Positions 6,404-12,793 of a stretch of 64,000 bases of DNA are shown piece after piece (position 1 is the stretch's first letter; the number at the start of each line of letters is the position of its first letter). Both the position numbers and the translations under genes were made by a program. The DNA comes from Eremomyces bilateralis CBS 781.70 (lineage: Eukaryota), in the NCBI GenBank assembly GCA_010015585.1, contig ML975155.1; one strand, written 5' to 3'. The notes under the pieces were generated by a model, which saw only the letters and a program-made list of their open reading frames with translations, had not been told where the DNA came from and searched no databases.

Positions 6404-7681
6404 ATGGTATGGATCAAGGAAGTAACACTACGGTATTCTGACTGACGGTTGAGTCTCTAGTCATACTCCGGCTTCTACGACGAAGGCAGCCCGATGGGCA
6501 TGTATCAAAACGCCATGCTCGGCCGGCGCGGAGGAGCGCCGCGGCGTTTCGACGAATACTTCCGATGCTATCCAGTGGTCATGCTGCCCGGGCCCGACCG
6601 AGAAGACGCCAATCATGGCGGCAAAGTGTTTCTTCCTCCAAGTGCCCTGGACAAGCTCACCCGGCTCCATATCACCTATCCGATGCTCTTTGAACTGGTG
6701 AACGGCGCCAGAGATCGACAGACCCACGCAGGTGTGCTGGAATTCATTGCCGAAGAGGGGAAGGTGTACTTGCCACACTGGGTGAGAAGACTATGATAGA
6801 TGGGCCACGGCATTGTGAAAGCTAACATGGAGCAGTTGATGGAAACCTTGCTGCTAGAACCCGGCGACCTTATCCAAATCAAATCGACCGATCTCCCTCT
6901 AGGCTCCTTCATCAAGCTCCAACCGCAATCCACCGACTTCCTCGAGATTTCCGACCCCAAGGCCGTCTTAGAGAACGCGTTCCGTAACTTCTCTTGCCTG
7001 ACCACCAACGACGTCTTCACCTTCTCCTACAACGACAACATCTACAGTGTCGCCGTCCTGGAAACGAAACCAGAGAACCCTAAGAAGGCGATATCGGTGT
7101 TGGAGACGGATCTAAGCGTCGACTTTGCAGCCCCCGTCGGATATGAAGAGAAGATTGCCGCCGAGAAAGCGGCACGTGACGCCGCCAAAGCCAAGGCCAG
7201 GCCAGGCATGGCAACCGGTAGCAGCAGCGGCACCTCTACCCCACGAAGCGGTTTTGGAGGCGCACCTCTGGCGAATGAATCCGGAGTGGTTCACCCACAC
7301 GGGACCATGGCCCAAGCGATCAACTACCCGTCCATCGCTCCGAATCGCACCGGACAAGCACCGGGAACGTCCACGAGCTCACATTTCCAATCTGAGGGCC
7401 GCCGTATCACCACGAGGAAACCCGGCGCTGCAGAATCATCTGCAGCATCTTCGAGCACTGCCCTGCCGATCGCACCGCCCGCCTCGTCTGCCGCCGCTAG
7501 CCGGACGCATGAAAATGGACCGCTGCCACTGCGGTTGCCGGAGGGCAAGCTCTTTTTCGGGTACGGCATCGTGCCGGTGAAACAAAGTGCCGACGGAGCC
7601 GAGGGGGCCGGGGACGATGACAAGAAAGGGCGGTTCCAAGGCGCAGGGATGAACCTGAGGAAGAAGAAGGGGGGGAAGTGA
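6404..7681 (+). CDS. UFD1: Ubiquitin fusion degradation protein Ufd1 (Cdc48 cofactor)
   Basis: Exons 6404-6406 (ATG only), 6461-6781 and 6836-7681. Introns GTATGG..CTGAC..TAG and GTGAGA..CTAAC..CAG. UFD1 domain: FDEYFRCYP..GGKVFLPPSALDKL..THAGVLEFIAEEG..KLQPQSTDFLEISDPKAVLE. SHP-like FQGAG motif near the C-terminus. Confidence 0.95.
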
Positions 7682-10663
7682 ACGATGGTTCCAGGAACAG
7701 CGATCAGGATCGCCTTCGGGGCAAAGATGCAGGGAAATGATGGGATGAAAAGGGCGATTTTTTGGAGCTAAGACCATGATGATGAACTATAATGGCTGGA
7801 ATGATCATATGGCAGGTGACTCTGGCGCAAGGGGGTTCTCCAACATCCACGTCATGCATCACCAGCAAGGTCGGAATTGAGGCTGGAGTGGCTGAGGTTT
7901 CCAGAATGCAATAGTCGAATGAATTATGACTGAGTAGTAAGGTCAGCATGGCATGACTCTGCACAAACGGTTCAAAGAAGCTGAAACTTGGGTGGGGATG
8001 ATAATGTCGCGGAAGAACTCGTCTCGTTGCAGTAAGATCATGAACCGTACCTCCAGGCCCCAGCCACTAAACTAGCTAGATTGAATCTAACCTTGAGCAC
8101 CAACCAGGGCTCCAGGTGATATAATCTACAACTTCGGCTACTGTAAACGTGAGTATCTGATGATTCTATTAGACTAATACTTTGTGAAATGGATTATTTT
8201 AGGTCCGCGAATATTGAATCGACGTGGACCCTGGACTTCTGACGATTGGGCAAGACTGTCTGCTGCTATCAGTTCACCTGGTTGGGCCTGAGAGGCATCG
8301 CCCAACCCGTTCGAGCCGATATGGAATCTATGGAAGTCCTGCGCATCCATGAGGGTTGGCTACTATCTATAATTCGTCTCGGATTGGCCCGGTCCTGGGA
8401 TCAGGTACTTATTCATCCAACGGCCAACCCACTTCACCGACCGCCATGGATGATCGAACCAGGGGAACGAGATACCAAAACGGTATGGGGAGACTAGACG
8501 AACATAGTAATTGATACTCTATTGGATAAGGCTAAACTGGAAGTAGATATTAATAGGGGAGAACATGAAAATAGACCGATTGAGTCACGGGGGATGGGCG
8601 AACGGCGAGCCCGACAATGGGGAACTGGGGAACGATCGGTGGAAGCTCCGATACGAATTGCGTCAGTCCCTGCCAGGATACCTTGCTCCTTGCTGTTTGC
8701 GAGAACGCGAGTGGACTACCCTTGGCCGCATCCCGGTTTATGAAATCGCGGTTCTCCACTCGTTCTGGCCGTATATTGGATGTGACCGTCTTCCGCGTCC
8801 TTCCCGTGAGAGGGGTGGAGACGACCGATTACAGAAGAGAGGCAGAAACAGGCCGCAGGCGTCAAGGTTGCATCGAACGACCCTCAGCCTCATTCTGTCT
8901 CCGTCACTGGCCGTGAAGCTGTTGAAGTATCGAAGTCAAAGTGTCGACGTGCTTACTATGAGGTGGAGTAGCCCGTATTGTGGGAAGAACATCACGAAAC
9001 CAATTACGTGTTCGTACCTATACAGGCTATCATATACTTGGTATGGAAATAGGTCTAGACCGGATCGTTAGCCGAGAGATTACAGTGAAGAAGGGCGACC
9101 GCGAGACGGAGACTGCGAGACTATTCCTGTTATGAAACTGCACGTGAAGGCTGTGTACTGTACCACGTGTAGACGGATGTTGTGGCATGAACTATAACTT
9201 ACCGCCTACAGGTAGTAGATAGTAGCAATTTGAAGGACTCGGTCAGTAATGAAGCATCCGTGGCGGTCAGTGAGATGTGGCTGAGGCCCCATACTAACCC
9301 AATACGAACAGGTGGGAGGGTTGGAGTGGGCCGGAGTGGGTGGCTGGCCTATAGGGCGTCCAACCAAAACTCGAGACTCCAACAACATACTCCAGCATCC
9401 CCTTGCTAGCGCCAGTTGGTTGCCCCCCCCCTGGTCGTTCGGTCACAGTTCCTCCCCGCCAGTTGACCGTTGACTGCGCGTCCCGCCAACGACACCCAAC
9501 TCTCCTTACGGTCATGACTTCACCTTCTCTTTCTCATCCTCCGTTCAACGTTTTCCTCATCCGAAAATACCGTCGTTTTAAGCCATCATTCCACTACCGA
9601 CTCTTCTGTCATTCATCCGTCCATGCTCGTGCGTCAACTTGATGCACGAATCCCTGGTCAGCATCCGGACGACCCTTCGTTCATTCGACCACTCCAGACC
9701 GAGACCGGTCACTGAAGAGCAAGCCTGAACTCGACATGGCCAGACTATCCCTCCTCGTCATACTCCATCGCCGGTCAATATGTGCGGTGACTCAAAGCGA
9801 CGATAGCTCGATCTGTTAATTCCGCAGCTTTTCCAGTTCGTCATCTTTTCAGCAGGACACGATGCACACGACTATCGAGACGATGGTGTGGTATGACGGT
9901 GGTTCAATCCTGTGCTTCCATCAGGTGCGCTCAGCACCAGTACGGTCCAATATCCCGGAGTATGAACTTCTCCCTATACCGTAATCGGAAATATCTCTCG
10001 CATGAGCCGAAGCCATTCCTTCTAACTTGATCGTTCAATCCGTATGGGTGGGCTGCCACATCGATTCTTCTATCTCCACCCACCAATCTGACGCCTCTCT
10101 TCCTTGCTTTGCTGCCTCGTACTGCGCCTCCTGTGGGGGCCTGCTTTCTCTGGCCTTCTCCCATTTCTGTCTTGGACCTTTCTTCCTCTTCTTAGCCATG
10201 TATTTGGAACTGCAGGAACCGCCATGTGGGGTTTTACATCAGTCATCCTTGCCTGCCGAAAAGATGACAGCCTGGACGGACCACCTCTTCATGGCTTTCT
10301 CGCCTATCATTTAGCTATCCTCTTCGCTGTCGCCGAAGTCTTGCACACAAGAATTGATGTCCTGGCATATAAGAGGCGCGGGCGGTAGACTAATGCAAAC
10401 ATGGCCGGTGGTCAATTCGTTTCATACCTCACTGTCTGTTTTCACATTAATATCCTCATCCATATAACCTCTTCCGAGTCTCTCATTAGGCATCTTCCCA
10501 ACAGATATAGCGCCGTGCTTTTGACTCATATCCTCTCTGAAGCTTGCTGGACTCGTTTTTCGGAATTCTTAACACACCCCTTCCTGTCGTCTGGACTTAT
10601 ATCTCCGATCCACGTCAATTCGATCCCCTTGGCCTTTAGTGGCAGCCACTACCCTCAATCATC

Positions 10664-10810
10664 ATGTGCATCCGAGTCGTTGAGCGCTTCGCAGTCTGCG
10701 GCTGCGTCTATCATGTCCACGGCGTCGATGCCTGCGCTGCGTACGGGCAACATGCCGTCGCCGACCATACCGTTGTCGTCGGCCACGCATGTCCTAGACA
10801 CACAAAATGA
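10664..10810 (+). CDS. Putative 48-aa Cys/His-rich microprotein MCIRVVERFAVCGCVYHVHGVDACAAYGQHAVADHTVVVGHACPRHTK
   Basis: ATG in good fungal context (caatcatcATGtgc), TGA at 10808-10810. Third codon positions are C/G-rich like neighbouring genes. 5 Cys and 6 His in a regular pattern. Below the 60-aa cutoff of the ORF track. Confidence 0.7.
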   Translation: MCIRVVERFAVCGCVYHVHGVDACAAYGQHAVADHTVVVGHACPRHTK

Positions 10811-11962
10811 GGAACCCCCTAAGGCCGACGTTGACCGTCGGCCACGAAACTTCTCCTAACGGCCGCGCCTGGAACTTCCGAGGGATGAAATCGTCGCCTT
10901 GCGTGGGACTTGTTCGCGACCCGCACCCGAAACCACTCCGCGGGAACGGAGCGGACTCGACGCCTCCGCTCACTCATATGCTTCTTGCTTGGACGAATAA
11001 CGAAGGGATGAGGTCTATGCCGCTGACGCCAAGATGTTAAGTCATGATCGGCTACGGCCAGAAGTGAAGTCAACCGAATAGAATTGAGGTCGTGGAGTTG
11101 GAAATTGGACCCACGGGTTGGGGCATTTGGAAAGAATGCAATCATGAGCGATTTGGGTGGGAACAAACGAAGTCCCGACAAGTTGGAATACAGGATATAT
11201 ATCCCAGCTCTTGTATTTTATATGAATTGAACATGTTTCATGGTCTCCATTCTGGTGTCACTCCAAACACATGGTCTACTCCAAATGGCGATGTTTCGGA
11301 ACCTTTCAAGTAAATCAAGAAACCCGATTGAAAAGACTGCCCGTCCAAGGGCATCCAGCTATATAGGCATCCATTTTCCGGGCCGAAAGGCTCATTCTGC
11401 GTTTGCCCTCCTTCGCCGCAACTGTGCCGCCACCCACCGCCGATAAGACAGGATCCAGTCCACGCCCGTTCCGTTGGGCCCTATCGAGTCACTAGGAGAC
11501 CGGTCAACCGCATTGCACTCTACCATTGCCTCATATGGGTTAGGAACATGGCACAGCACATCGGTCCTCTCGAGTCATGGAGTAGAATACGAGTCCAAAG
11601 CGCAAGGTTAGGAAAGCAGAATAAATGGTGCCGCGAAGCGGTTCATTCAACGAACTGAAATTCAGTCCACCTATCTATTCCGATCCATGCATGTAGAAAA
11701 CTCCGTCTCCGGCGTGAAGGAGTCCCGTCGCCTGCTCGCGGACGGAATCGCTGCACGACAGGAAGGCCTTGATAACCAGCCTCATGGACGCATGAAGCCG
11801 AACTCCGCGCTGTAAAATCAGAACAAGGAACCGTTCCTCGACGCGCCGTCCCGTACGCCATAATGGAAACCCCGCCATATCGCCGTGACTAAGGATGAAA
11901 GGAAATATGCTTCTCTAGCCGTCTGACAAGACAGTAGCTGGAATTAGCGAAGCCATCATCCC

Positions 11963-12793
11963 TTATTTCTCGTCTTCCTCGTCTTCCTCGGCGCTGCCCG
12001 AATCCAACGCATCATCATCATCGTCGTCATCATCATCATCATCATCCATATCATCCATGTCAAAATCACTCTCACTCCCCCCGAAATCCTCCACCTCCGC
12101 ATCCGAGTCGCCCCACACATCCATATTGAAATCGTCCTCCTTCACCGTCTTGAACGCGTCCTTCTGCGTCGGCATGACGAACCCAACCGGAAGATCCTTC
12201 TTGCTCTCCGCGACGTCCTTGCGCGCCCGCTCGTCGAACGTGCCCTTGTTCTTCCGCCACAGCACCGCGGCGTCGACGTTGGCGGGCGAGGACACCTCGG
12301 CGTCGTCGAGCAGCGAGAGGATGGAGATGAGGACCGACTCGACGCGCTGCGCGGGGGACCAGCGTTCCGAGGCTAGTTCGCCGGACATCTCGTCGTCGCC
12401 AGGGGGGTGGAGGATGGAGATGCAGAGCCGGCCGTCGGGGTAGACGTTGGGGTGGAAGATGGGGCGGGTGAACTTGAAGTCTGGTGGGGAGAGGTTAGCT
12501 GACTCCACAGACCCGGGTGGAATGAATGGTGGCATACCTGGGGGGCTGAAAGGGTAGTTTTTGGGGAACGTCATTCGGGCTTTGAAGTAGCCGCCGCTGT
12601 ATGGCGACTCCTCATTCAAGACGATCAGAGCGACGCTCCATTCGAAGACATTGTCGTCAATAAGCTGCGTAAACGTTTAGTCACGGCGTCTAGATATGGT
12701 GTTCGGGGGTGGGGGCAATTGGTGTACCTCGATGTTTGTCCATCCCTCCTTAGACAAGGCCTTGTACTCGCCCATCAAGATCTTCTCCGCCAT
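11963..12793 (-). CDS. CDC34: E2 ubiquitin-conjugating enzyme, Cdc34/Ubc3 type with acidic tail
   Basis: ATG at 12793 (MAEKILMGEYKAL). Introns 12665-12727 and 12481-12537. HPNVYPDGRLCISILH active site, acidic loop insertion (PPGDDEMSGELASERW) and poly-D/E C-terminal tail. Confidence 0.88.

Follow-up and report, generated by a model that had tools for sequence, protein, structure and literature searches.

The C-terminal dimerisation domain of the Fur-family metal sensors carries a Cys pair in its first hairpin and a G-x-x-C-x-x-C/H motif after its last strand, has a helix before that last strand, and is preceded by an N-terminal winged-helix domain. Metallothioneins are Cys-dense, aromatic-free chains without regular secondary structure. 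In the case of dominant-negative microProteins, an excerpt of a published account describes a larger multi-domain protein of the same domain that is physically sequestered (PMC4807768), and in the available part of a review on the hidden fungal genome the fungal microprotein examples all come from yeast (PMC11413187). Here we describe a Cys/His-patterned protein of 48 residues (aa) encoded by a short open reading frame (ORF) of Eremomyces bilateralis CBS 781.70. The coding sequence, 48 codons plus TGA, lies at 10664..10810 on the + strand of a 64,000-nt stretch of contig ML975155.1 (GenBank assembly GCA_010015585.1), which we refer to as the window, and had been picked out from the letters alone as a hidden gene for a zinc-binding microprotein (the original prediction). 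The evidence for it comes from its translation, a profile match, selection, invariant residues and predicted strands. Our overall reading, to which we give slightly less than an even chance, is that it is a stand-alone gene whose product would be a two-zinc beta-sheet, acting inside the cell as a protein-binding module and as the stable counterpart of a tailed form.

The original prediction was right about the start: the ORF opens with an ATG in a strong context (10661..10666, + strand, A at -3) and runs through the 48 residues quoted there to TGA. An in-frame TAG eight codons 5' of the ATG (10637..10639, + strand) means that the ORF cannot extend upstream, which excludes a signal peptide or any other N-terminal addition in this frame. 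The Cys/His spacing given for the protein, C-x9-CxC-x9-C-x5-H-x12-CxxH (C2, C12, C14, C24, H30, C43 and H46), is exact; it left out H19, which is likewise invariant, so that the number of candidate ligands rises to eight. Gene-like codon bias had also been claimed. Among the 36 ATG-initiated ORFs of at least 35 aa within 7700-11960, the 48-aa ORF does have the highest fraction of C at third codon positions (0.57), followed by its own antisense shadow (0.53) and by the remaining ORFs at 0.37 or less, but its GC content at third positions (0.64) is exceeded by at least one other.

The 48-aa protein has no Pfam match, and Pfam gave nothing consistent across the family members searched. Relatives are nonetheless numerous: a five-sequence profile returned 481 clusters at 50% identity (E up to 0.001), and a 60-sequence profile returned 398 clusters at 90% identity among 458 candidates of 25-170 aa. 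Among the best 150 and the best 120 matches listed, the named relatives belong to the Eurotio-, Dothideo-, Leotio- and Sordariomycetes; genera among these matches are Penicillium, Aspergillus, Talaromyces, Paracoccidioides, Coccidioides, Botrytis, Hypoxylon and Thelocarpon, together with many Dothideomycetes and other Leotiomycetes. The likeness to Pezizomycotina hypothetical proteins starting with Met-Cys, suggested in the original prediction, thus led to an actual family, whose names among the matches listed are 'hypothetical', 'uncharacterized' or 'unnamed', with one UniRef 'Secreted protein' as the sole exception. Examples are Botrytis cinerea BofuT4_P092910.1 (CCD50019.1), Penicillium rubens XP_002568261.2, Aspergillus clavatus ACLA_065600, Aplosporella prunicola KAF2142734.1 and Plenodomus tracheiphilus KAF2854356.1. 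They have in common with the 48-aa protein a core of 46-48 residues containing all eight Cys/His, and identity to it is 44-75% over the other 59 rows of a 60-row alignment; most named members, however, have a two-residue insert before H30 and a C-terminal tail, and the 48-aa protein has neither. The positions invariant in 60/60 aligned sequences are M1, C2, E7, C12, C14, H19, D22, C24, H30, V39, G40, C43 and H46, so that all ligand candidates, five Cys and three His, are included. The family spacing C-x9-C-x-C-x4-H-x2-D-x-C-x5/7-H-x12-C-x2-H, with E7 and G40, is found in the 48-aa protein, and the strict spacing fits 390 of 399 sequences, one of the 399 being an unrelated protein. No literature describing this Met-Cys family with eight ligands was found in open main texts, supplementary gene tables not being covered. 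The family is genuine, conserved, zinc-finger-like, uncatalogued and uncharacterised, with sequences already deposited as hypothetical proteins without function.

To set the ORF against chance, we used a profile of 236 independent cores of the two-residue-insert subfamily, from which both proteins of this genome (see below) were left out. The ORF scored 68 bits (E 8.8e-19) with this profile, the best of 20 block-shuffled windows 11 bits, and all other frames of the window 9 bits or less. The 48-aa ORF is far beyond chance. Selection was assessed on loci from a metagenome scan, in which 343 pattern matches gave 164 confirmed relatives and 79 loci kept at 49-79% identity; with the two copies of this genome they make 81 loci and 60 distinct DNAs. 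A purine is present at -3 in 57 of the 60 distinct loci, and an upstream in-frame ATG in five. On one 2.9-kb contig the same match occurs twice in inverted orientation (L014:142-247 and 2673-2778), perhaps as an assembly artefact. The ratio of nonsynonymous to synonymous substitution rates (dN/dS) has a median of 0.07 and a maximum of 0.28 in the 30 unsaturated pairs out of the 465 formed by 31 distinct DNAs lacking the insert. Against the window itself, dS is finite for 10 of 30 DNAs (1.1-3.3, with dN of 0.14-0.24) and saturated for the other 20, and the mismatches divide 361/271/837 over the three codon positions. Two to four synonymous codons are used at each of the 12 invariant residues examined. 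The 48-aa ORF is under strongly purifying selection, which was one of the checks proposed for it. It should be noted that the loci were chosen by protein similarity and by patterns, one of two patterns including MC, which pulls dN down, builds in the start and to that extent counts against our reading. The sharp boundaries of DNA similarity cannot be explained in this way: in a blastn comparison over 9301-11900, similarity to the relatives is limited to 10651-10811.

The same data bear on the view that the ORF is not an independent gene but has arisen by chance, is an upstream ORF or forms the first exon of a longer protein. Longer forms do exist, since 48 of 360 distinct sequences run more than 70 residues past the module. 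Against this view stand the profile score and the shuffles, the stop after 47-49 aa in 23 of the 31 no-insert loci, the stops that the other frames carry in 18, 23, 6, 31 and 22 of these 31 loci, the opposite strand of the next recognised gene downstream, and the failure of long tails to find a match in the window. We find this view barely credible, and with homologs, purifying selection and the 68-bit score in hand, we hold it as all but certain that the 48-aa ORF is a real gene, as had been claimed. A 77-aa ORF follows directly (10807-11040, +), its ATG overlapping the stop of the 48-aa ORF (ATGA); it has no Pfam match and shows no DNA similarity in the relatives.

Five AlphaFold models of the 48-aa protein, with predicted local distance difference test (pLDDT) values of 89-94 (best 94), consist of three strands (residues 2-8, 15-22 and 32-38) and no helix, and the eight conserved Cys/His sit in this compact predicted fold (60/60 invariant; pLDDT 94). 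Eight invariant ligands point to two zinc ions, and metal is favoured over disulfides because the number of Cys is odd, His residues are invariant and there is no signal peptide. A two-zinc fold is therefore what we consider probable, in line with the zinc-binding fold originally suggested, zinc binding itself being deduced from the ligands. C2, H19, C24 and H30 would form one site at one end of the sheet, and C12, C14, C43 and H46 a second site at the opposite end, so that the 48 residues would make a three-stranded sheet pinned by two structural zinc ions. The covarying pair V18-D34 fits the pairing of strands 2 and 3. Fold searches with the model gave no significant match among solved structures.

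Three strands likewise make up the C-terminal dimerisation domain of Fur, Zur and PerR (PDB 2fe3, 2rgv, 7ne9), and its layout of Cys pair and final motif is similar to that of the 48-aa protein, whose model can be aligned over its full length with PerR 88-141 in a match that is not significant. The 48-aa model differs from the Fur/PerR domain in having no helix, and the protein has 48 residues in all; a FUR Pfam match was found in none of 60 family members. The likeness is of interest for the alternative that the protein handles metal, as a small zinc or copper buffer, chaperone or sensor whose sites would be exchangeable, not structural. Invariant Cys/His account for eight of the 48 residues, D22 and E7 do not vary either and the protein holds little else, and Fur-family metal sensors are the only metal-site proteins that the PDB searches matched over the full length; we nevertheless regard metal handling as unlikely. 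A metallothionein was considered and rejected, as only five of the 48 residues are Cys, an F or Y is conserved at 9, 16 and 27, and three strands are predicted. A secreted small Cys-rich effector was rejected as well, given the in-frame stop eight codons upstream, the near-absence of upstream in-frame ATGs (5/60 loci) and upstream extensions in the database models that are unrelated to one another (signal peptide judged from sequence).

The invariant C2 also invites a reading as a redox or oxygen switch, in which removal of Met would expose Cys2 to oxidation and to turnover by the Cys/Arg N-degron pathway, or in which oxidation would eject zinc from a site rich in Cys. All 81 loci start with ATG-TGY, which is partly by construction since the MC start belongs to one of the two search patterns. 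The Cys/Arg N-degron pathway is a pathway of plants and animals, and N-degrons are usually unstructured; here, the set of eight ligands would be incomplete without C2, and a predicted strand spans residues 2-8. We consider such a switch highly improbable.

What the zinc-pinned sheet might do is suggested by its surface. Positions 3, 5, 6, 9, 11, 15, 16, 21, 32, 37, 38, 39 and 41 are hydrophobic in 91-100% of 322 cores. Conserved hydrophobics at consecutive strand positions point to both faces of the sheet, and as no helix covers them the module would bury them in a contact with a partner protein or with another copy. We therefore propose, at about an even chance, that the 48-aa module acts inside the cell by binding either another protein or a further copy of itself. 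The surface has also to be weighed for a small RNA- or DNA-binding zinc finger, which would use Arg/Lys at 8, 13 and 35 together with the conserved Tyr and whose tailed forms, those with Arg-rich ends, would be nuclear. Arg or Lys does occur at position 8 in 95%, at 35 in 97% and at 13 in 69% of the 322 cores, and 167 of 270 mid-length tails end in Arg. However, net charge is near neutral (-1 to +2 in 275 of 322 cores), the 48-aa protein (P0001) has a pI of 7.7 and a His at 35, the acidic E7 and D22 are invariant, and the model has no recognition helix, which leaves a nucleic-acid finger very unlikely.

The family comes in two forms, and this genome has both. Two single-protein searches of it returned the 48-aa protein, which ends two residues past CxxH, and a 70-aa paralogue (P0005; C29:22992-23204, equivalent to L002:1501-1713) with 64% identity to it, and nothing else; the two copies lie on separate contigs, and the tail of the 70-aa copy has a degenerate DSGY motif. 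The no-insert loci mostly stop at the end of the core, as described above, and all 29 insert loci run for 64-110 aa, one of them cut by a contig end. Plenodomus tracheiphilus likewise has both tailed and tail-less forms. In a quick tree (122 rows, 48 columns; 81 of the 119 inner branches unresolved), the 48-aa protein falls in a 24-row group with tail-less Plenodomus, Aplosporella and Lojkania proteins, the 70-aa copy groups with tailed forms, and both copies sit with the matching Plenodomus copies. An old duplication would be the simplest reading of the two forms, although it is not proven. As for microProteins, fused larger forms are present in other genomes, and this genome gave the 48-aa and 70-aa copies only.

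It had been suggested that annotation pipelines may often miss this gene. The suggestion is borne out only in part, as tailed members are annotated in many genomes. Of 10 tail-less or near tail-less clusters looked up, five have NCBI names, all of them Dothideomycetes, and in four of the five models there is an upstream extension of 23-64 aa that looks spurious. Upstream extensions of at least 30 aa occur in 82 of 320 proteins and are related to one another in only 7 of 3321 pairs, so that most look like gene-calling artefacts.

Many tails carry the motif DSG[YF]xS, which occurs in 143 of 237 relatives' tails, at a median of 16 residues past H46, versus at most 2 in 200 shuffles. Many tailed relatives thus have a motif in common with phosphodegron substrates of beta-TrCP/Slimb/FWD-1: according to excerpts of two published sources, DSGYSS is the beta-TrCP degron of Emi1 (PMC9606124) and FWD-1 is the Neurospora homologue of Slimb (PMC10931572). 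By this analogy the motif is a likely degron, and phosphorylation of DSG[YF]xS would lead to turnover of the tailed form by a Skp1-cullin-F-box (SCF) ligase, SCF(FWD-1/beta-TrCP), that is, to its being switched off. The tail-less form would then be a stable counterpart that binds the same or a related partner, a division of labour that we put forward tentatively and think rather doubtful.

Several points weigh against the reading of the 48-aa protein as a two-zinc, protein-binding, stable counterpart of a tailed form. As to the fold, the ligand pairing was reasoned from strand order alone, the predicted template modelling score (pTM) is 0.68, covariation is weak (effective number of sequences about 103) and the top covarying pair, A31-R45, has no explanation; moreover, the 48-aa protein has His35 and His41 at positions that are Lys/Arg (97%) and hydrophobic (91%) in the family. 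The 24-row group of the tree has a Shimodaira-Hasegawa-like approximate likelihood ratio test (SH-aLRT) value of 90, which does not reach the starred level, and it leaves out 10 of the 33 no-insert rows. Finally, 94 of 237 tails do not contain DSG[YF]xS, and, unlike the phosphodegron substrates, neither protein of this genome contains it, its absence from the 70-aa paralogue weakening the degron contrast here.

Some longer predicted proteins also begin with the module and continue into unrelated domains (SH3, aspartyl-protease-like, C2H2 and several unnamed), the largest fusion group being that of one unnamed domain with seven sequences from both subfamilies. In-frame fusions are L004:2389 onward; P0076, P0079, P0081, P0091, P0121 and P0134; P0068, P0140 and P0154; P0072 and P0108; P0143; and P0145. 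They are a possible clue to partners. A further kind of extension was seen in proteins from outside the window (P0080, P0119, P0125, P0131, P0156, P0264, P0319, P0320 and P0118), which read on through a Trp into about 55 conserved residues at the point where the Botrytis model P0155 stops; three other matches have 78-81% identity to P0125 in this region, and a Hypoxylon model joins its second half. The extension could reflect readthrough, A-to-I editing, splicing, a conserved 3' element or a gene call with TGA as Trp; one study found no genome-wide editing in apothecia of Botrytis (PMC11156358). A switch throughout the Pezizomycotina, made up of a tailed two-zinc microprotein degraded by SCF(FWD-1), a competing or dimerising tail-less twin and a stop-recoded C-terminal extension in one clade, seems to us distinctly unlikely.

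The 48-aa gene was said to lie in a 4.2-kb gap between UFD1 and CDC34. Pfam supports the flanks, with UFD1_N1/N2 in the upstream neighbour (UFD1, 6494..7681, +) and UQ_con in the convergent downstream gene (11963..12793, -), a ubiquitin-conjugating enzyme (UBC) gene that we take, from its features, to be CDC34-like; the gap measures 4.3 kb. The relatives L017 and L024 also have UFD1 on the same strand, about 4.5 kb upstream. Over the testable no-insert loci, linkage is 2/8 for UFD1 and 0/14 for the UBC gene, and for that reason we do not take the position between them as functional. An intron of the UBC gene (12665-12727, -) is bridged by a contig of run X1. Another contig of this run skips 121 nt at 7930-8050, where the CT..AC ends correspond to a minus-strand GT-AG intron; no convincing coding frame was found across it, and it may belong to an antisense RNA that is spliced or be what remains of a gene since lost. 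At the corresponding position, L017 and L024 show what looks like a minus-strand gene of several exons, whose last exon (P0318), used as query, had no match in this genome. About 3.7 kb downstream of the paralogue, a 626-codon frame (L083:3881-5758, +) may encode a carotenoid oxygenase, going by a motif.

In summary, the 48-aa gene belongs to a family that lacks a Pfam entry, has no significant match among solved folds and bears no functional name in the records returned. Its relatives were already deposited as hypothetical proteins, and the role of the family is proposed here, not demonstrated. The finding exposes an annotation fault, in that tail-less members tend to be modelled with upstream residues that are not conserved, and one of them bears the label 'secreted'. 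The 48-aa protein would be cheap to test, as its synthesis is feasible, this genome has two copies and Penicillium rubens, which is tractable and not a pathogen, has a member, and the likely degron of the tailed form would offer a specific handle on regulation. Conserved in four classes of filamentous ascomycetes and invariant at 13 positions, so small a protein very likely has a basic function.
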